Shown here piece by piece: positions 100 to 53,289 of a stretch of DNA of 53,289 nucleotides. Location: the IMG/VR virus record IMGVR_UViG_3300030101_004884, positions 1 to 53,289 of that record, one strand, 5' to 3'. A model generated the notes under the pieces. That model saw only the letters and a program-made list of their open reading frames with translations. It made no database searches and was not told the origin of the DNA. Source of the DNA: a virus (taxonomy: Duplodnaviria > Caudoviricetes). A program made the position numbers and the translations under genes. The stretch's first letter is position 1; every line of letters begins with the position of its first letter.

Positions 100-149
100 A
101 TCGCTAGTTTTTTTGTTGTTTCGATGATTTCTCTAATAAGTTTTTTCAT
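63..149 (-). CDS. 28-aa peptide MKKLIREIIETTKKLAIEIAQNIKGVAS (not in ORF track)
   Basis: ATGA overlap with the stop of the upstream ORF (146-149) and TGA/ATG overlap with the next gene (66 = 53256). Confidence 0.6.
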   Translation of the reverse strand: MKKLIREIIETTKKLAIEIAQNIKGVAS

Positions 150-334
150 GAATTCACCTCATCCAAGGGCGAGAAGAAACACTTCTGGCAGCGATGCATG
201 CCATTGAGGCTGTCAACGGTGCTGTGGGTACGAAAAGGTTTTTTACCCTTTGGTGTGCAATCCTCACACACCATAACCATATGGCCAATTTGGCCTGTTG
301 GGAGTTTTACTGCGATTTCATTAATTTTTTTCAT
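146..334 (-). CDS. small Zn-binding hypothetical protein (CEDC...CQKC)
   Basis: Start moved to MKKINE, which follows a purine-rich RBS (GGCAGGGA); two CxxC pairs. Confidence 0.6.
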   Translation of the reverse strand: MKKINEIAVKLPTGQIGHMVMVCEDCTPKGKKPFRTHSTVDSLNGMHRCQKCFFSPLDEVNS

Positions 335-447
335 AACTGATCCCTGCCTTCCTCTATTTTGTAACACTAAACCCAAGGTATTTACAACACTAACAACACG
401 AAAAACACGAAAAAGATTAAAGACGATGATAACGTGTTGAAATTTAA

Positions 448-744
448 TCATCTTTTAAAGTTTAAATTTCGAGTATCTCTATATCTGGTCTTTTTATAAT
501 CAGGATCTTCGTTTTTTTTCTCGACTCTAAACCCCTTTAGCTCAAATATTTCAAAAAAATTCGTCCCACAATCCTCACATGTCGTAAATAACTCTATACA
601 AGTGTTAGATTTTCGCTTAACAAACCGACTTCCTGGTGCCACCACAAAACGATAAGAACCCTTGTTTTCTCGGCCACATACAGGACATTTTATCTCGTCT
701 CGTTTAGCGTTTTTTCTGTATTCCTTTTGTGATAATTTTTTCAT
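448..744 (-). CDS. Zn-ribbon protein, paralog of 51443..51706
   Basis: MKKLSQK.Y...CPxCG...CEDCGT.F.E.F.L.G shared with the 51443 ORF; ATGA overlap with the upstream gene. Confidence 0.75.
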   Translation of the reverse strand: MKKLSQKEYRKNAKRDEIKCPVCGRENKGSYRFVVAPGSRFVKRKSNTCIELFTTCEDCGTNFFEIFELKGFRVEKKNEDPDYKKTRYRDTRNLNFKR

Positions 745-1193
745 GATAATCCCTCTTTTCTGCATCCCTTCCTACATCCTTCCCACTGACAATTTTCACC
801 ACGCCACCGGAGCCACTTACAGCGAACCTTTAGGAAATGGGCGCTGTCCAGCTCCTGATAAAAAGCACATAGCTCTAAAAGGCCATAAACGTCCTCTTGA
901 TCTAGTGTAAAGTCGTAGCCCCTGGAATGGAGGTCACGGTTAAAACCCCTCACTTTAGCGTGCAAAATGCCGATGATTTGATGTGACTCTAGACCCCTAG
1001 TAGGTTTAAAAAACGCGCTATAGGCTTCTGAGGGGCCTCCTAGAAAGCGAACAGCGCCATTAAAGCATAGCGTGAATTCGAGCATGTCTCCCTTGAGTAG
1101 TTTTTCCTTAAGCCACTTTTCTACTTTTAAGCCCCTGGCGATGGATTCTTTTTTCAATTCTTTCTCTACTTCTATGATTGTTTCTTTTTCCAT
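741..1193 (-). CDS. hypothetical protein, first gene of the leftward early operon
   Basis: 150-aa ORF with GAAGGAAG RBS; coupled to the next gene. Confidence 0.65.
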   Translation of the reverse strand: MEKETIIEVEKELKKESIARGLKVEKWLKEKLLKGDMLEFTLCFNGAVRFLGGPSEAYSAFFKPTRGLESHQIIGILHAKVRGFNRDLHSRGYDFTLDQEDVYGLLELCAFYQELDSAHFLKVRCKWLRWRGENCQWEGCRKGCRKEGLS

Positions 1194-1887: not shown

Positions 1888-1902
1888 TGGCACGATTCTT
1901 GC
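1888..1902 (+). promoter_or_regulatory. sigma54 -24/-12 site TGGCACGATTCTTGC
   Basis: Matches TGGCAC-N5-TTGC with exact GG-N10-GC spacing. Confidence 0.8.
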
Positions 1903-2019
1903 GACACTGAACATGTTTTCAGCAATAACTGCGAAGATACGCGCCGATTTTTGCCATTTTGACAAACTTTTGCAGATGTATGGTATTTTTACCATATCGA
2001 TACGTGAATCCGGTTCACG

Positions 2020-2075
2020 AAAAAACTTTTAAAAGGGGGGGGTTGAAAAAAACTTTTAAAAGGGGGGGTCCCCCT
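2020..2075. repeat. two copies of the dispersed AAAACTTTTAAAAGGGGGG element
   Basis: Same motif and orientation at 48294, 51080 and 52162. Confidence 0.8.
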
Positions 2076-2093
2076 TCTCTGGCCTCGCTCGCC

Positions 2094-2233
2094 CGTCAGA
2101 ATTTTGACACGTCAGAATTTTGACACGTCAGATTTCTGGCGTCATTTTTCTGACACGTCAAATCACTGACGCGCCAGATTGTTGACACGTCAAATTTGTG
2201 GCGTCAAATCGATGACGCGCCAAAAAATTGGCG
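2094..2233. repeat. tandem array of nine palindromic CGYCA-N6-TGRCR sites
   Basis: Units of 14-16 bp, e.g. CGTCA GAATTT TGACA, CGTCA AATCAC TGACG, CGCCA AAAAAT TGGCG. Confidence 0.9.
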
Positions 2234-2268: not shown

Positions 2269-2284
2269 TGCAAATTTGGTGCCA
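2269..2284 (-). promoter_or_regulatory. sigma54 -24/-12 site TGGCACCAAATTTGCA
   Basis: Consensus match with GG-N10-GC spacing. Confidence 0.8.
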
Positions 2285-2522
2285 ATTATCGCTTCACCTC
2301 CCAATTATTTTTTCGCCTAATTCAATTATATATAGGGCAAAAAACAAGGTTTTAAGCCCCTTGAATTAGATCCTGGAATTAGATCCTAAATTGCCGCGTC
2401 AATCGGTGCAAATTGGGCAAAATTCAAAATATGATTTTTTATTTTTTACAATTATTTTTTAGCCTAAAATTAAAAGCCTTATTTTTCATCTGTTTATGCT
2501 TTTCTTTTTGTTGTTTTTTTTA

Positions 2523-2599: not shown

Positions 2600-2860
2600 A
2601 TGAAAATAGAAATCAACGAGGATTGCAATATCTGCACCGATTGTCTTTTGTATCTGGTCAATGGCGAGGAACCACACAACGAGGATCCGCAGCACCCTTT
2701 TGATGGTACAGGCAACAATACAAAATATTTTTCGTTTTCTTTGAAGAGCGAAGAAACATTTTTTAGCCATACAAGGTGTGATAACTGCCTAAGGCCTTTG
2801 GCTGGTGATCGACACAATGGTGATTTAATAGCTTACAAGACCGAAAAAAAAGAAGGATAA
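2600..2860 (+). CDS. Cys-rich hypothetical early protein
   Basis: RBS AAGGGA; CxxC motifs (ICTDC, RCDNC). Confidence 0.75.
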   Translation: MKIEINEDCNICTDCLLYLVNGEEPHNEDPQHPFDGTGNNTKYFSFSLKSEETFFSHTRCDNCLRPLAGDRHNGDLIAYKTEKKEG

Positions 2861-2866
2861 AAAACA

Positions 2867-3202
2867 ATGAAAAAACTAAATAAAAAAGAAAAAGAGATAT
2901 TTGTAAAACTTGAGAGCCTTCACTTGATGAAGGCTGATCTTAAATCGTCTTTGGCGTCAATTGCGGCACAAATTGCAGCCTATGAATTGCAATTACAAAC
3001 CATTGATCAACGTAAGTTAATCAACGGTAAATTATGGCATAACGGAATTGAGTTATACACGTTTAAAAGAACAACGTGTAAACACAAGAGCGTAGCAATT
3101 GATCTTGTGGAACGTCACGGAATCCCACGGAAAGATCTTGAGGAAGCAATTGAAAAGCATTCAAAGACTAATCAATCATTAAAAACTAAATTAGCATTAT
3201 AG
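2867..3202 (+). CDS. hypothetical coiled-coil early protein
   Basis: RBS GAAGGA; operon spacing. Confidence 0.75.
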   Translation: MKKLNKKEKEIFVKLESLHLMKADLKSSLASIAAQIAAYELQLQTIDQRKLINGKLWHNGIELYTFKRTTCKHKSVAIDLVERHGIPRKDLEEAIEKHSKTNQSLKTKLAL

Positions 3203-3211
3203 GGGTTCAAA

Positions 3212-3445
3212 ATGAAAAAAACGTTAATTCATGTGACTAACGACGAAACGCAAGAAACCAAAACGTATAGGGTTGTAGGCATGACCCATAGCGGATCAAG
3301 GGGCTTGGAGTACCAATTAAGTCCTGATCAACCCTTCGACGGTTTGGTTCATAGCGTTTGCCATGCGCCACCGGATGGAGTTTTAAGGTTTAAGTCAAGT
3401 GGTAATACATACCGAATTGAACACGTTGAAAGGGGCATATCATGA
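3212..3445 (+). CDS. hypothetical early protein
   Basis: RBS AGGGG; ATGA overlap with the next gene. Confidence 0.7.
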   Translation: MKKTLIHVTNDETQETKTYRVVGMTHSGSRGLEYQLSPDQPFDGLVHSVCHAPPDGVLRFKSSGNTYRIEHVERGIS

Positions 3446-4242
3446 GACAGTCAGTAAGGATCGGCGCATATGGCGATCCTTTTGCAGTGCCTAAAAACAT
3501 ATGGGAAAAGCTTTTTAAGGGCAGATCAAAGATCAAGCATAGGAGAAAAGACCTACCCGATCTTGGTTGGATCTTATATCGTGGCCCGTCTATGTTTGAT
3601 CCTAAGACTGAGATCGTGTTGATAGCTACTCGCAATTCGAGAAACATTAAAACTGGTAACATGATCCAGTTATGGATCTTACTTGTGGACATAGCGCCAC
3701 ACGAAGCCACAAAGGAATTGAAAGCTATTTGTGGTGGCTGTTTATATCGGCACGATCTAGCCGACAAGGGCAAAGGTGGCTGTTATGTGTTAAGGCATAA
3801 CGCTCCCTTAAGCATCTGGCGATCTTTTCACTCTGGTAAATATTCAACCGATACCGATCAAGCTTTTGACTTCATAGCAGATCAGATCGATCGCTATGGA
3901 TACACGGGATATAGTGAAGGCTCAATTCGTTTCTTAAACAGTAGAATAAAAGAGAAAGCGCAAAACGCTGAATTTCTAGCGTCTAAAATTATGTTGTCGG
4001 CCAAGTCTCAAATTGAAGCCTTGGAATTACAGCGTAAAGGCTTTAAAACATTTCGACCCGTTGGTTCGCTTGACGAAATGATAGAAGGCGAAACGCTTTG
4101 CGAGTCGGACAAAAACGATCTTCAGTGTGAAGAGTGTCTTAAGTGTGACGCTAAAAACGGATCGATCGTTGTGCTTGCTCATGGGGCAAAAAAGAAAACT
4201 GTATTACATACTATTGGATCCCTAAAACGCGCAACCGCTTAA
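3442..4242 (+). CDS. conserved Cys-rich phage protein (DUF7227/Gp88-like, recalled from memory), apparently with permuted motif order
   Basis: Motifs GWILYRGPS, SRNIKTGNMIQLWIL, ICGGC, CYV, VRIGAYGDP, TGY, GFKTFR, CEECLKC and AHG. Confidence 0.7.
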   Translation: MRQSVRIGAYGDPFAVPKNIWEKLFKGRSKIKHRRKDLPDLGWILYRGPSMFDPKTEIVLIATRNSRNIKTGNMIQLWILLVDIAPHEATKELKAICGGCLYRHDLADKGKGGCYVLRHNAPLSIWRSFHSGKYSTDTDQAFDFIADQIDRYGYTGYSEGSIRFLNSRIKEKAQNAEFLASKIMLSAKSQIEALELQRKGFKTFRPVGSLDEMIEGETLCESDKNDLQCEECLKCDAKNGSIVVLAHGAKKKTVLHTIGSLKRATA

Positions 4243-4269
4243 GCCCTATCGCCTAACCCTAACAAAACG

Positions 4270-4295
4270 AGCCCCCTTTAAAGGGGGCTTTTTTT
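4270..4295 (+). terminator. intrinsic terminator of the 2600-4242 operon
   Basis: AGCCCCC-TTTAAA-GGGGGCT followed by a T run. Confidence 0.85.
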
Positions 4296-4303
4296 ATGCC
4301 TTG

Positions 4304-4411
4304 CGTTCGTCGTTCGTTCGTCGTTCGTCGTCCGTCGTTCGTTCGTCGTTCGTTCGTCGTCCGTCGTTCGTTCGTCGTTCGTCGTTCGTTCGTCGTTCGT
4401 CGTCCGTCGTT
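4304..4411. repeat. A-free CGT/CGTT/CGTC microsatellite, 30 CGT units
   Basis: Directly visible; 108 bp. Confidence 0.95.
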
Positions 4412-4433: not shown

Positions 4434-4551
4434 TGGTCCTATACTTGCATTATGCAAGATCGGTGCCACTTTTTTGGCATGAACCTTGCAATAATGCAAT
4501 TACCATACCCGAACCAAATTCTGTTTTTGTTGGCATGCAAGTTCCGTGCCA
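4434..4551. promoter_or_regulatory. cluster of five sigma54 -24/-12 sites in both orientations
   Basis: +4434 TGGTCCTATACTTGCA; -4468 TGGCACCGATCTTGCA; +4475 TGGCATGAACCTTGCA; -4510 GGGTATGGTAATTGCA; -4551 TGGCACGGAACTTGCA; all have GG-N10-GC spacing. Confidence 0.8.
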
Positions 4552-6673: not shown

Positions 6674-7843
6674 TTAATTACAGTTCGTCGAAAAGAAGTC
6701 GAGAAGATCGTCAATCATCCAGACCGAGTATCCTAGAAAAAATATGGTTCCTCCCGTTGGTATGCCTATTTGCTCATATTCAGCAACATAATTAGGCTTA
6801 ATAACTGAATGAACAATGATACCAGAAGCAATACATGCCGACGTGGCCTCTTCAAGCGCCATGCTTTGCGCTGACTGGGGCTCTTCGTCGGTGAAGACAA
6901 GGAGATGTCTTTCTGCGTCTTGTCTCCAGGTGATTTCTGACGAGGAACAGACTTCATGGATGGCATCAATACCTGGCTCAAGGCCTCCTCCAATATTCGT
7001 AGCATTTATAATTTCTCCTTGGAATGTCGTGCCATCCACAAGGTCGGTGATAATCCTCATGGTTGCGTATCCAAATATTCTTTGTTCGTGCCTGGGTCCT
7101 GGAAAGACCGCTGCGCCGAACCGAGTTTCAGTGTCATTCATGGCTCCGGCTACGGTATGCGTTGTTGTTATTGCTTCGTTGAAAAGCGAGTCCATAGAGC
7201 CGGAACCGTCTATGATAAAAAATATGTCAATTTTATCAAAAAGATCTTCATCGATAAGGCCATCGCAATCATTGTCAAGACCGTCGCATATCTCCGTCGT
7301 CGGCGTTTTTTCGTGCAAGCACATTTCTTGAGCATTAACACAGTCTATCACCCCTGCCCTGCATTCGCCGAAAGCCAGCGTTTCAGGATTTCCAGTATAG
7401 CAAAGCTCCAAAGAAAGATTGTTGTCAACCAGACCATCGCAATCATCGTCGAGCCCATTGCAAACTTCGTCCACGCCTTCTTCTCTTCCTCTACAAACTC
7501 TTTGTCCTTCATCGCACACCTCCGTGCCAGCGTTACAAATACCTAAATTGGAACCACAGGCTTGTCCGGCCCACTCCTCGGTAAGGTTGTTATCAATTTC
7601 TCCATCGCAATCATCGTCGATCTGGTTACACAGCTCAGGGACGGGCAGTGTTTGGCCTTGGCAATTCACTACGATGTCGTTTTCATCACAAATCGTTACG
7701 CCGACCCCACAAGGTCCATTGCCTGCCGTTCCAGGGGGGCCAGCGTAACAGGGGAGATTGCAAGCCTTTGAAACCATCGCGATGTCTTCATCACATCCAG
7801 CCAAAGACAATAAAACCAATAAAGACAACACGGCTTTGTTCAT
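6674..7843 (-). CDS. lipoprotein with Cys/Asp-rich MopE-like repeats and a C-terminal vWA domain
   Basis: Lipobox LAGC; three ExC(N/D)xxD(D/N)DCDGx(I/V)D repeats; MIDAS DGSGS and FTDE. Confidence 0.85.
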   Translation of the reverse strand: MNKAVLSLLVLLSLAGCDEDIAMVSKACNLPCYAGPPGTAGNGPCGVGVTICDENDIVVNCQGQTLPVPELCNQIDDDCDGEIDNNLTEEWAGQACGSNLGICNAGTEVCDEGQRVCRGREEGVDEVCNGLDDDCDGLVDNNLSLELCYTGNPETLAFGECRAGVIDCVNAQEMCLHEKTPTTEICDGLDNDCDGLIDEDLFDKIDIFFIIDGSGSMDSLFNEAITTTHTVAGAMNDTETRFGAAVFPGPRHEQRIFGYATMRIITDLVDGTTFQGEIINATNIGGGLEPGIDAIHEVCSSSEITWRQDAERHLLVFTDEEPQSAQSMALEEATSACIASGIIVHSVIKPNYVAEYEQIGIPTGGTIFFLGYSVWMIDDLLDFFSTNCN

Positions 7844-8510: not shown

Positions 8511-8990
8511 ATGACTGATATTTTAAGTTTACGCAACGGTGTTGCTCAAAGAACGACCGCAAAAAATGTTTTAAAGCTGAGAAAGATGGGCTTAGACGCA
8601 CAGCAGATTTCTGGCGAGCTTGATATGCCGCTTGACCGCGTTAAGAACATCATTTCAAATGCATTGAAGGCTCTCGCAAAAGAGATGAAGGGTCAAGCAG
8701 AGCAGATTAGGTCTTTAGAGCTAACGCGCCTAGATGAGCTTCAGACCGCTATCTGGGCAGACTGTATGGATGGCAAACTTACCGCTATTGATCGCGTATT
8801 AAAGATCATGGAGCGCAGATCTAAGTTGGTTGGTCTGGATGCGCCTGATCGACTTGATATTAAGGCAGACATGAAGCTTGAGCATATGAAAGAGGCAAAA
8901 GAGCGTTTGATGTCTAAGATTTTGGATATGGTGCCACAGGAAGAAGAAGAGGTGGTGGCCGAACTCCCTGCGCCCGAGCTTGAGGACTAA
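8511..8990 (+). CDS. terS: terminase small subunit
   Basis: N-terminal HTH; LELTRLDEL...AIDRVLKIMERRSKLVGLDAP signature; lies upstream of TerL. Confidence 0.8.
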   Translation: MTDILSLRNGVAQRTTAKNVLKLRKMGLDAQQISGELDMPLDRVKNIISNALKALAKEMKGQAEQIRSLELTRLDELQTAIWADCMDGKLTAIDRVLKIMERRSKLVGLDAPDRLDIKADMKLEHMKEAKERLMSKILDMVPQEEEEVVAELPAPELED

Positions 8991-10664: not shown

Positions 10665-12017
10665 ATGGCTCGCTACCCCAACTTAGATATTATCGGTCAT
10701 ACAGGTTTAAATTACACAGGCGGCAACATCAACGAGGAATGGCTGACTAAGCTTTCCGGCGACAGGGCGATTCGTGTCTATAAAGAGATGCGAGATAATG
10801 ACGCAATCGTTGGCTCCATTCTTTATGCTATCAAAGCCTTGGTAAGACAGGTGCCATGGGCAGTCGAGGAAAACCATTCTGGCCACCCACAGGCTGAACG
10901 TGCGGCAGAGTTTTTGCGCGAGTGTGCTTTCGATGACATGTCCCTAACATGGGAAGATCTTATATCGGAAATACTTAGCATGCTTGTTTTTGGTTTCTCC
11001 GCTTTTGAGATTGTCTACAAGATTAGACGTGGACCTGACTCACGCAGCCCAAAATACCGATCAAACTACACTGATGGCCTCATAGGGTGGCGCAAGATAG
11101 CAACACGCTCGCAAGACTCCATCACAGAATGGGCGCTAGATGAGGATGGCGGCATACGCGGCTTTTATCAAAACGCATCTCCAAACTACCAGACCGTGTT
11201 TATCCCCATCGAAAAGGCGCTGCTTTTCCGCACGGAAGTAAACAAGAACAATCCTGAAGGCCGCTCGCTGCTTCGCAACGCTTATCGGTCTTATTTTTTC
11301 TTAAAGCGCATCCAGGAACTTGAAGCCATCGGTATTGAGCGTGAACTGGCTGGGTTGCCCGTATTGCAGGTTCCACCTGAAATCATGATGCCAAACGCAA
11401 AGGCGGAGCAGAAAACCCTCCGCAACAACCTTGAGACGCTGATTCAGCAAATCCGCAGAGACGAACGAGAAGGCGTTCTAATGCCTTCCGAGGTTGACTC
11501 CGACAACAGGCCCACAGGGTTCAAGTTATCGCTTCTATCGACCGGAGGGCGGCGTCAAATCGATACCAACGAAACCATCAAGAGATACGAGTCTCGCATC
11601 GCGATGTCAGTACTTGCTGAGTTCATTTTGCTCGGTACTGATTCTCACGGGTCGTTCGCTCTGGCGTCATCCAAGACCGACCTTTTTGCATCAGCATTGG
11701 GCGGCATCCTAGACTCCATTGAGGCAGTGATGAATCGTTTTGCCGTTGCTCGACTGATGAAGCTCAATCCAGTGTTTCCCAGAGAGTCATGGCCGCGATT
11801 TAAGCATGGCGACATAGAGAAAGCCCCATTGGATGAGGTTGGAACATTTATCCAGCGAGTGGCGGGTGCGAACCTGTTAACACCAGATGTTGCAGTGGAG
11901 GCCAAGGTACGCGAGATGGCGGGTCTGCCCGAGGCGGGACCAGAGACTAAGCTTGTGGAAGATATTGAGGAAGAGGAAGTTGTTGAGGAGGAAGAAGATG
12001 CCCTACAAGACGACTGA
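10665..12017 (+). CDS. portal protein (DUF935/Mu gp29-like)
   Basis: Position after TerL; FGFSAFEIVY, NPEGRSLLR and GSFALA motifs. Confidence 0.9.
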   Translation: MARYPNLDIIGHTGLNYTGGNINEEWLTKLSGDRAIRVYKEMRDNDAIVGSILYAIKALVRQVPWAVEENHSGHPQAERAAEFLRECAFDDMSLTWEDLISEILSMLVFGFSAFEIVYKIRRGPDSRSPKYRSNYTDGLIGWRKIATRSQDSITEWALDEDGGIRGFYQNASPNYQTVFIPIEKALLFRTEVNKNNPEGRSLLRNAYRSYFFLKRIQELEAIGIERELAGLPVLQVPPEIMMPNAKAEQKTLRNNLETLIQQIRRDEREGVLMPSEVDSDNRPTGFKLSLLSTGGRRQIDTNETIKRYESRIAMSVLAEFILLGTDSHGSFALASSKTDLFASALGGILDSIEAVMNRFAVARLMKLNPVFPRESWPRFKHGDIEKAPLDEVGTFIQRVAGANLLTPDVAVEAKVREMAGLPEAGPETKLVEDIEEEEVVEEEEDALQDD

Positions 12018-35966: not shown

Positions 35967-36431
35967 ATGACAACAGCAAAGAATAACACAGCATGGAGAA
36001 GCACAAGCACTATGGGCAATGGCGTTAATGATGCCATGTTTGCAACCCTAGCAGGTCTTCGATACAGAATCCAAAAAGAAACAGGTGTCGATGAGGTAAA
36101 ATATGGGTTATATAGGCTCGCTAAAACTGGTTCCCGCAAGAAAGTTTGGCAGATTAGCGAGATTGCAAAATTTACCACGCTAACAGGGGCCACTGTTCGC
36201 AACTATATACAATCCGGCTTTTTAGATGCCACAAAAATAGGACACAAGTGGCTTGTCAGGCATGATGAGGTGGTTCGTGTTTTTGGTGGCCTGGGTATAC
36301 GCTTTGAGGACGGAGATCATTGTATTGAGGAGTGGAGCTTTCTCAGAGAGATGGAAACTGCTGAGGCGGCGCAACGGTTGGCGGAAGTGGACGCAGCAGA
36401 GTTTCACGCAAGAAAAGATGCAAAGTCGTAA
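35967..36431 (+). CDS. excisionase-like (HTH_17) DNA-binding protein
   Basis: ISEIAK....TVRNYIQSG.L.A.KIG..W.V. Confidence 0.75.
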   Translation: MTTAKNNTAWRSTSTMGNGVNDAMFATLAGLRYRIQKETGVDEVKYGLYRLAKTGSRKKVWQISEIAKFTTLTGATVRNYIQSGFLDATKIGHKWLVRHDEVVRVFGGLGIRFEDGDHCIEEWSFLREMETAEAAQRLAEVDAAEFHARKDAKS

Positions 36432-46869: not shown

Positions 46870-47457
46870 TTATACTTCGTCATAAGTCATCGCCGCCCTC
46901 ATTTTTTCAAGCGCCTCTTTTTTTATTCTAGAAGCACCAGACTCGCTGATACGCATGTTTTTGCCGATGTCGGCAAGCGTATCTCCTCTGTAAAAGTGCA
47001 TCCAGATAACACTCAACTCCCTGCTCGTCAGACCAGAGAAACCAAAACTTAATAAAATTCTTGCATCCATTATGTTAAACCCTAAATCGTAAAACGGTAA
47101 ATCCTCATCAAGCTCAACAAAGGTCGTACTCATCACTCTCAGCCTCGTTTTTCCGACGCCAAGCTCTTCACATAGGCTTTCGTTGTTTACCTCAACACCT
47201 TTTTTTATCAGGTGTTCCTTTGCTTTCTTCAGCTCAATACTACCACGCGACAATGGATTTTCTTTTCTAAGGCCGTCTATAATAGCGTATTTAACTTTCC
47301 ACTCAGCATAATCATCAAAAGCCATTGTTGACTCATCCTTATATGTTTTAAGGGCTTTTTCGTAGCCCTGCCATCCGTATGAATACAGATCTTCCTTTGC
47401 TGTTTCACATGGCAGAGAAATTCTCTTTATGGCGTTGTTGATAATCTGCATCATCAT
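46870..47457 (-). CDS. RNA polymerase sigma factor, FliA/WhiG (sigma28)-like
   Basis: Region 2 EDLYSYG..G..KA..TY...F..YA..KVKYAIIDGLR; region 4 LTSRE..VI...FY...TL.DIG....ISES..SRI...AL.KMR. Confidence 0.88.
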   Translation of the reverse strand: MMMQIINNAIKRISLPCETAKEDLYSYGWQGYEKALKTYKDESTMAFDDYAEWKVKYAIIDGLRKENPLSRGSIELKKAKEHLIKKGVEVNNESLCEELGVGKTRLRVMSTTFVELDEDLPFYDLGFNIMDARILLSFGFSGLTSRELSVIWMHFYRGDTLADIGKNMRISESGASRIKKEALEKMRAAMTYDEV

Positions 47458-48282: not shown

Positions 48283-48293
48283 ACATGTTTATG

Positions 48294-52969: not shown

Positions 52970-53256
52970 GATGCCACCTCATACCTTGTGAACCACACAT
53001 ATTTAACGTCTTGACCCTGGAATTTGCTGTCTTTGATTTCCTGGATAAATTCGACAAAATTTTCACCTTTTGAGAAAACCGCGCTTTTTTTCCAATAAGC
53101 CCCTTTTGCTTTTTTTATCGTTTCACTTTTTGTGCGTTTTTTTTCCAGATCTACTTTTGAGAATAAAACATTATTTTTAGCGTCAATATATCCGCTACTA
53201 AATACGGTTTTTACGTTTTTACCCTTGTTTAATACGTTCTCCAGTGCCTTAATCAT
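52966..53256 (-). CDS. basic hypothetical protein
   Basis: AGGGG RBS; coupled to the 63..149 peptide across the junction. Confidence 0.65.
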   Translation of the reverse strand: MIKALENVLNKGKNVKTVFSSGYIDAKNNVLFSKVDLEKKRTKSETIKKAKGAYWKKSAVFSKGENFVEFIQEIKDSKFQGQDVKYVWFTRYEVAS

Positions 53257-53289
53257 GATGCTACCCCTTTAATGTTTTGAGCGATTTCT
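53191..53289. repeat. 99-bp terminal overlap, copy of 1..99
   Basis: Exact identity with 1..99. Confidence 0.97.

Follow-up and report, generated by a model that had tools for sequence, protein, structure and literature searches.

Nine contiguous dyad boxes between facing promoters

What could a row of short palindromes be doing at the very place where the two gene arms of a phage genome part? The question is raised by a Caudoviricetes genome of 53,289 nucleotides (IMG/VR record IMGVR_UViG_3300030101_004884), analysed here over its full length and called the window in what follows. Between 2094 and 2233 it carries nine contiguous 14-bp dyad boxes of the form C-GYCA-N6-TGRC-R, delimited by pattern scan and with Tandem Repeats Finder and assigned to neither strand. 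We propose, at a probability of about 0.4, that this array is a multi-operator landing pad for a dimeric helix-turn-helix (HTH) regulator which arrived with an accessory module.

The boxes start at 2095, 2111, 2127, 2141, 2157, 2173, 2189, 2203 and 2219 and together cover 2095-2232, with start-to-start intervals of 16, 16, 14, 16, 16, 16, 14 and 16 bp. Tandem Repeats Finder calls the part from 2094 to 2197 as a repeat of period 16 (6.7 copies, 70% matches). In the 53,289 bases of the window GYCA-N6-TGRC is found 13 times, nine of these 13 matches being the contiguous ones; shuffled controls gave a mean of 3.17 (standard deviation 1.83, largest count 9), and 13 or more matches were reached in none of 100. 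No second array of this kind is present in the genome, all of which lies in the window.

Conservation is distributed unevenly along the box. In the first half-site G, C and A are present in all nine boxes and the second position is T or C (78 and 22%); in the second half-site T, G and C are constant and the third position is A or G (67 and 33%). Six of the eight half-site positions are thus 100% conserved, and a C precedes the box in nine cases out of nine. The spacer has no invariant position: at five of its six positions the most frequent base accounts for 44-67%, and the remaining one is an A in eight boxes (89%). As the inner spacer is always 6 nt long while the box-box junction is either 0 or 2 nt, the unit is the 14-bp dyad and not the junction.

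Pattern scan and box composition therefore confirm what a preliminary description of this DNA had reported, namely nine consecutive 14/16-bp units with conserved half-sites and free AT-rich spacers. The array shows the features of an operator array: dyads, conserved half-sites whose centres lie about 10 bp or one helical turn apart, and a free spacer. Classical 14-bp phage operators share this one-turn geometry. The preliminary description had also preferred selection for dimeric-protein binding to slippage, and the fixed half-sites, the free spacers, the constant N6 and the recurrence of the box in unrelated phages with other spacers all agree with it. The array is real and, to judge from the pattern of its letters, selected for binding by a dimeric protein, from which pattern the dimer geometry is likewise deduced. 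Structured RNA was considered and rejected: the fold z-score of the array is -6.0, but this is a trivial outcome of tandem palindromes. A scan of the window against Rfam matched no family, a tRNA scan of it found none, and the phage collection contained no DNA match to the control region.

The array is placed within a 1.4-kb non-coding region from which both gene arms diverge, one of few long non-coding stretches in the map of open reading frames (ORFs). Leftward ORFs of the minus-strand arm run from 1193 through the junction of the genome ends to 43865, and those of the plus-strand arm from 2600 to 43685. From left to right the control region comprises a cluster of TGTAAC words, an exact sigma54 -24/-12 site at 1888-1902 (plus strand, directed rightward to the array), a leader of about 110 nt, twin motifs, the array, a second exact sigma54 site at 2270-2284 (minus strand, directed leftward into the array) and about 320 bp of AT-rich DNA. 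The array thus adjoins twin leftward terminator-like motifs and lies just inside two inward sigma54 promoters. That sigma54 sites on both flanks point at the array had been noticed before, and the exact consensus at 1888 and 2270 bears it out.

The same box class in unrelated phages

Scanning viral sequences for double boxes returned 35 loci, with arrays of 2-11 boxes, some of them present as two arrays 1-2 kb apart. Triple boxes at the 16-bp register turned up in 16 viral loci; two control half-sites matched in composition, CTGA/TCAG and GACT/AGTC, gave 0 each. Since the controls find none, arrays of GTCA boxes form a specific, over-represented class and are not the product of a chance half-site. 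From 96 boxes in 20 arrays outside the window the consensus YGTCA-A-W-W-T-T-T-TGAC-R was derived. Over 21 arrays (the eight intervals of the window included), boxes follow each other at 16 bp in 54 of 84 cases, at 14 bp in 10 and at 17 bp in 8. Arrays recurrent in unrelated marine phages are a real class. A DNA search with one of them, the array of L018, returned a single and irrelevant match.

Across lineages the arrays are intergenic and their neighbours are few in kind. The commonest are the large terminase gene terL (13 loci, at 160-1360 bp) and a gene for a GP88/DUF7227-like protein (12 loci, counting the window, where it occupies 3442-4242); a small terminase gene terS of the Terminase_2 type is near the array in 10 loci, at 338-929 bp. 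Taken from the other side, a search with the GP88-like protein gave, among its best 80 viral loci, 11 with clusters of at least 2 boxes, the cluster being upstream of the gene in 10 of the 11. Other tandem dyads were also seen among the GP88-like loci, with half-sites TGAT-N7, ATGT-N8, TATC-N4 and ACGT-N8. Roseobacter phage CRP-403, a cultured relative, has its GP88-like gene among the first ones beyond the gap next to the end of terL. Together, these neighbours and the gene order of CRP-403 place the recurring slot at the junction between the late/terminase end and the early operon. Of 27 arrays, 9 have a G/C run of at least 6 no more than 80 bp away, for a background of 0.24 runs per kb.

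In the literature searched, subscription journals being outside its reach, no description was found of one box type that forms a nine-fold array and recurs in many unrelated marine phages where the early and terminase modules meet. Arrays of operators, iterons or packaging sites are textbook elements; by that literature, the recurrent nine-fold array of one box is apparently undescribed.

A swappable module absent from close relatives

Searching with the large terminase subunit (TerL) led to two 51-kb genomes, G006 and G007, whose TerL is 90% and whose capsid protein is 92-94% identical to those of the window. Most structural and replication genes are common to the three genomes, at 60-94% identity. 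Among cultured phages the nearest by TerL, at 46-51% identity, infect Brevundimonas, Roseobacter and Microcystis. Direct reading of the two loci revealed no box array in either, isolated boxes at most. In its place G006 has two 41-bp repeats made of face-to-face sigma54-like elements, and G007 a 10-bp repeat (3.5 copies) together with other sequence. The plus-strand sigma54 site is kept nearly letter for letter in both, which also share the leader and the twin motifs. When promoter and leader were scanned for together, 107 loci came up, in which the leader motif survived filtering in G006 only; G007 was also in the scan (as L308), its match being cut by the contig end.

The genes on either side of the array, 146-1193 and 2600-4242, have no counterpart in G006 or G007, and the same is true of several others. 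Because these flanking genes and the array are missing together, the array belongs to a swappable module and not to the conserved core. The left-hand group consists of the first three genes of the leftward arm (146-1193, minus strand; 150, 105 and 101 aa), which are candidate binder carriers, and the right-hand group is a four-gene operon (2600-4242, plus strand; 86, 111, 77 and 266 aa).

A candidate landing pad for a phage HTH regulator

One argument that the array came with its own regulator comes from another lineage. Among 15 related loci (group A), a protein of 143-175 aa is encoded between or beside two arrays in 4 of 4 loci with arrays, and in 0 of 11 sister loci without them, one of which (L061) holds 410 bp upstream only, too little for a judgement. 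Four of the array-less sisters were checked for a replacement array and had none. Relatives of this protein are named in their sources as CsgD or NarL/FixJ-type DNA-binding regulators, and its residues 70-117 match the DNA-binding domains of VraR/LiaR weakly (E 0.4-0.6). The co-variation is the best single evidence that such arrays may come with an HTH protein of their own. Since the sister phages of group A simply lack it, the array module is dispensable, which tells against an origin or a packaging site. A further locus, L037, has an HTH_31 gene whose start is 113 bp away from the array.

As alternative binders, the preliminary description had named the small terminase subunit (TerS) or another phage HTH protein. 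Overall identity between the TerS of the window and its G006 and G007 counterparts is 77-78%, and the DNA-binding HTH at the N-terminus of TerS is conserved in these two relatives, both without the array; TerS is for this reason an unlikely binder in the window lineage. Another phage HTH protein is what we favour.

A small phage protein arriving with the module, and encoded by a window-specific gene on either side of the array, would most likely be the binder. With a 16-bp register, neighbouring dimers would sit on alternate faces of the DNA; all nine sites could be filled at once and about 140 bp coated. The filled array would gate or block transcription through the control region between the inward sigma54 promoters, and would also buffer how much of its binder is free. 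We do not expect it to work as an upstream activating sequence. Since sister phages do without the module, it is also unlikely to be an origin, a packaging site or any other cis element that a phage cannot spare.

Several points weigh against this proposal. No recognisable DNA-binding domain was detected in the window-specific genes adjoining the array, by atlas look-ups and by domain scans covering 54 of the 80 window ORFs (40 with Pfam, 14 more with PHROGs only). Neither the window nor the other array lineages contained a homologue detectable with a profile of the group-A HTH protein, and clustering of six genomes (the window and five near-complete array genomes) produced no shared small protein family. 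With no shared family, unrelated binders would need the same half-site, and a common host factor fits better. Nine contiguous operators exceed, to our knowledge, any known phage switch, and binding by any protein is here something that we infer from sequence.

Comparison of 23 window proteins by phmmer with the ORFs of 46 array loci brought out only a vWA/MopE-like protein, shared with L006. This 389-aa protein (6674-7843, minus strand) has repeated Cys-Asp motifs; its homologue in L006 (13951-14751) combines MopE-like metal-binding repeats with a vWA domain and is encoded directly beside the array. Nothing usable was returned by the atlas for 741-1193 or 2867-3202. For the HTH_17 protein at 35967-36431, no match was obtained in G001-G005, an empty result that carries no weight.

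A host regulator as a possible binder

The main alternative binder would be a host global regulator of FleQ-type specificity, for which the boxes might form an enhancer-like sensor of the host state or a titrating sponge. We think this possible, though improbable as matters stand. The FleQ consensus cited in the preliminary description is in print as stated, in PMC6120874, and the cross-lineage box consensus equals it; the resemblance is one of sequence only. FleQ activates sigma54 promoters, and the window holds four exact copies of their consensus. A host factor would also account for a box class over-represented across phages without a common candidate binder. Repeated decoy sites are moreover an established concept.

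Another argument comes from L079 and L082, sisters of the array-bearing L081, in which the same slot is filled by a Fur-box array, so that host-factor arrays do occur there. The array lies at 1759-1907 in L079 and at 313-461 in L082, between terS and the operon of the GP88-like gene of a 32%-GC phage, and consists of 8 overlapping matches (0-2 mismatches) in about 150 bp, 2 of them exact to a 15-nt consensus which we take to be that of the Fur box. A longer, 19-nt Fur consensus co-occurs with the term 'Fur box' in the literature. The Fur-like array suggests iron-responsive control, or titration of Fur, by a marine phage.

Extending this, one may imagine that marine phages load arrays of host-regulator boxes into a slot at the head of the early operon, near the terminase genes, where replicating phage DNA would titrate the regulator or read the state of the host: FleQ-type GTCA-N6-TGAC boxes here and in at least 10 other lineages, Fur boxes in L079 and L082. 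We regard this generalisation as doubtful.

The exact consensus TGGCAC-N5-TTGC occurs at four places in the window, the two flanking the array and two more at 4454-4468 and 4537-4551, both on the minus strand; with at most one mismatch, 12 sites are observed for 4.42 expected. The array is downstream of both promoters: it begins 192 bp beyond the -12 element of the plus-strand site (1902 to 2094) and ends 37 bp beyond that of the minus-strand site (2270 to 2233), while an upstream activating sequence is placed some 80-200 bp upstream of a sigma54 promoter. In G006 and G007 the promoter persists although the array is missing. In 44 other array-holding loci no enrichment of sigma54 sites near arrays was seen (2 sigma54-like sites per 54,440 bases near, 21 per 293,509 bases far), and Pfam scans of 40 window ORFs returned no Sigma54_activat domain. 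The amplified sigma54 enhancer put forward in the preliminary description thus does not hold up well, and the case for the array as such an enhancer is weak.

A better-placed candidate for the upstream site of the 1888 promoter is the cluster of seven TGTAAC/GTTACA words at 1488-1753 (neither strand; 7 of the 25 in the window), which includes a dyad at 1736-1753, 135-152 bp upstream of the -24 element. At the matching place in G006 (L040, 1000-1320) there is a cluster of about 10 GATCCAC words. The two clusters look like lineage-specific upstream sites.

Other observations also tell against the host factor. The FleQ motif is unreliable genome-wide according to PMC6120874. Arrays of group A track a phage HTH gene. 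Finally, GTCA-N6-TGAC double boxes stand beside unrelated housekeeping genes in many bacterial phyla: a scan of bacterial genomes placed double boxes in at least 120 loci, often from Paenibacillus or Acidobacteriota, and 7 of 10 flanking ORFs scanned were housekeeping genes. Cellular regulators of various kinds thus make use of the half-site, and a match to it alone names no binder. Many Paenibacillaceae genomes (L136-L203) share a conserved pair of dyads, 16 bp long and centred on CG; at the one such locus scanned, L152, the pair lies beside a gene for a sugar-binding protein and looks like a LacI-type double operator.

Replication origin, packaging and other possibilities

Could the array instead be an origin of replication? 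The boxes would then be iterons for a phage initiator and the AT-rich DNA on their right an unwinding element, with the inward promoters and the G-runs supplying activating or priming transcription. Several features are those expected of an origin. Tandem sites adjoin DNA whose GC content falls to 26-29% (2350-2650), as iterons do an unwinding region, and the array is found in a long non-coding stretch, at the divergence of the gene arms and at the minimum of the cumulative GC skew. Non-coding DNA of the window contains only two sizeable repeat arrays. The DUF927 primase-helicase is only 37-44% identical to its counterparts in G006 and G007 (10-30% in the N-terminal 150 residues), compared with 60-91% for its neighbours, so its specificity could co-vary with the array. 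The G/C runs, abutting a third of the arrays (9/27), would also suit this role. On the other hand, the primase-helicase is accompanied in its divergence by differences in many other genes, and the skew minimum cannot be separated from the effect of gene orientation. A distance of 14 kb lies between the array and the replication genes, the same half-site serves phages that share no replication protein, and sisters in group A lack both array and replacement, which would be odd for an essential element. Classical iterons, besides, are 19-22-bp direct repeats, unlike a 16-bp dyad register. We therefore consider an origin unlikely, without dismissing it.

A packaging signal is still harder to defend. 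In this scheme, pac or cosB-like, an oligomer of the small terminase would wrap the boxes, and the adjoining G/C run would be at or near the cut site. The closeness of terL (160-1360 bp in 13 loci) and of Terminase_2 terS (338-929 bp in 10), the Sf6-type TerS among the array neighbours of L026 and its kin, and the G/C runs beside 9 of 27 arrays speak in its favour. But in the window terS is 6.3 kb from the array, and its N-terminal HTH, conserved in the array-less G006 and G007, does not co-vary with the boxes; the G-run motif is present at four other places in the genome, and a single half-site is found across differing TerS families. The probability that the array serves in packaging is accordingly low.

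Neutral tandem duplication, a variable number tandem repeat without binding function, has in its favour that the first two units are identical and is already largely refuted, to the point of being hardly credible: spacers differ while half-sites stay fixed (100% at six of eight positions, with no spacer position fixed, the reverse of a simple repeat with spacers as conserved as half-sites), the array is letter-identical in contigs of two other samples (X2 and X4), and the box class recurs in unrelated phages where control half-sites give none. Least probable of all is a partition centromere of a plasmid-like prophage state, for which there is a weak BLAST match (E 0.04) to a Methylobacterium plasmid with two boxes about 110 bp upstream of a parA/ribbon-helix-helix operon, and against which stands the lack of any ParA, ParB or ParM family among the 54 scanned ORFs.

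Comparison with known systems and significance

The operators of phages 434, P22 and lambda are 14-bp dyads bound by HTH dimers, and the array resembles them in its 14-bp dyad, its half-sites of 4-5 bp one turn apart, its free AT-rich spacer and its situation in a divergent control region. It differs from them in having nine contiguous sites where these have three per operator, in the absence of any obvious overlap with -35/-10 elements, in its sigma54-type flanking promoters and in that no cognate repressor gene was identified. With iteron origins (lambda ori, P1 incC/incA) it shares tandem sites of initiator type next to AT-rich DNA and a specificity that may swap between relatives; unlike theirs, its units are palindromic, in a 16-bp register and far from an initiator gene, and the module is dispensable in another lineage. 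The stoperators of mycobacteriophage L5 are asymmetric and dispersed, whereas the sites of the array are symmetric and contiguous. Like stoperator or roadblock arrays and decoy arrays in general, the array places many copies of one regulator's site in transcribed DNA, where blocking and titration are expected. Pseudomonas FleQ boxes, as quoted in PMC6120874, are built alike (GTCA, six mostly A/T bases, TGAC) and share the link to sigma54. FleQ sites are single or few and upstream of their targets, whereas the array has nine in tandem, downstream of the promoters.

What the array would mean depends on its binder. A phage protein would make it a portable module of regulator and pad exchanged among phages, and a ready orthogonal DNA-binding part. 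With a host regulator, it would be a natural virus-borne sponge for a transcription factor, tying infection to motility, biofilm and iron status at sea. Should the idea of a common slot prove true, phages would possess a takeover device acting at the DNA level and needing no protein, by which host programmes of motility, biofilm or iron are rewired. The array is short and defined, and is directly amenable to gel shift.

Genome setting and neighbouring elements

The window is a complete phage genome, bases 1-99 being the same as bases 53191-53289 and the record being classed as a virus contig with terminal repeats; the identical 99-nt ends indicate a 53,190-bp circle or a permuted molecule. Among 54 of its 80 ORFs neither integrase nor ParA nor sigma54 activator was recognised. 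Beyond the four-gene operon, the plus-strand arm encodes methyltransferases, TerS (8511-8990), TerL (from 9183), and head, tail and lysis proteins, followed at about 34-43 kb by a recombination and replication block (YqaJ, a RecT-like protein, a helicase and the DUF927 primase-helicase). Between terL and the portal/protease gene, 1.2 kb (10665-11886) hold only short minus-strand ORFs. The minus-strand arm contains small genes and those of an extracytoplasmic function (ECF)-like sigma factor, a papain-like protease and a methyltransferase. The ECF-like factor (46870-47457, minus strand; Sigma70_r2 and Sigma70_r4) is 45-48% identical to its counterparts in G006 and G007. That the array could represent promoters for this factor was considered and rejected: the derived pattern TGAC-N17-CGTC matches 4 times, 3 times in the array and once inside a gene.

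The twin motifs that abut the array (2013-2078, minus strand) were found by repeat and hairpin scans. They are two copies of a motif of about 23 nt made of an A-run, CTTTTAAAAG and a G-run, and the right-hand copy forms a terminator-like hairpin on the minus strand (2078-2058). Further copies occur at 48287, 50547, 51072 and 52157. The window phage, G006 and G007 have 5-6 copies per genome, in constant orientation, and because a short G/C hairpin usually adjoins it the motif can be read as a terminator on the minus strand that separates leftward genes. The presence of several in one arm hints at antitermination control.

To the right of the array, an AT-rich spacer extends from 2234 to 2599 up to the first rightward gene, on neither strand in particular, with a GC content of 26-36% in 150-nt windows. 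It contains a 13-nt repeat (2359-2387, 2.2 copies) and a sigma70-like pair of hexamers (2423-2452, plus strand). To the left, upstream of the first leftward gene, a 24-nt repeat is present in three copies 58-61 bp apart within 1242-1384, and a lone near-box GTCA-N5-TGAC, its spacer of 5 nt, lies at 1413-1425.

The 2600-4242 operon is closed by a strong hairpin terminator at 4269-4290. Its last gene, 3442-4242, encodes the GP88/DUF7227-like protein (P0001). An AlphaFold model of P0001 (predicted local distance difference test score 84) had no Foldseek match in PDB at E <= 0.001, the best VIA Z being 2.9, and a single-protein search with P0001 found no viral relatives. P0001 appears circularly permuted: its RIGAYGDP motif stands at residues 6-13, whereas the family consensus (A1, A2) has it in the middle of the protein. 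Seven (nearly) invariant Cys and one His characterise the GP88/DUF7227-like family.

Past the operon terminator, about 108 bp (4304-4411) are taken up by a tandem repeat of CGTTCGT type, with periods of 7, 11 and 18. The contig of the source run breaks in this repeat at 4333-4382, away from the nine-box array, and unrelated metagenome contigs pile up there. A lone GCCA-N6-TGGC box at 4465-4478 (neither strand) arises from the -24 elements of a back-to-back pair of sigma54-like sites, 4454-4468 (minus strand) and 4475-4489 (plus strand, 1 mismatch), and the last box of the array is of this type too. All four exact sigma54 sites and this near-site are confined to the intergenic regions on the two sides of the 2600-4242 operon. 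For a phage, such reliance on host sigma54 promoters is unusual.

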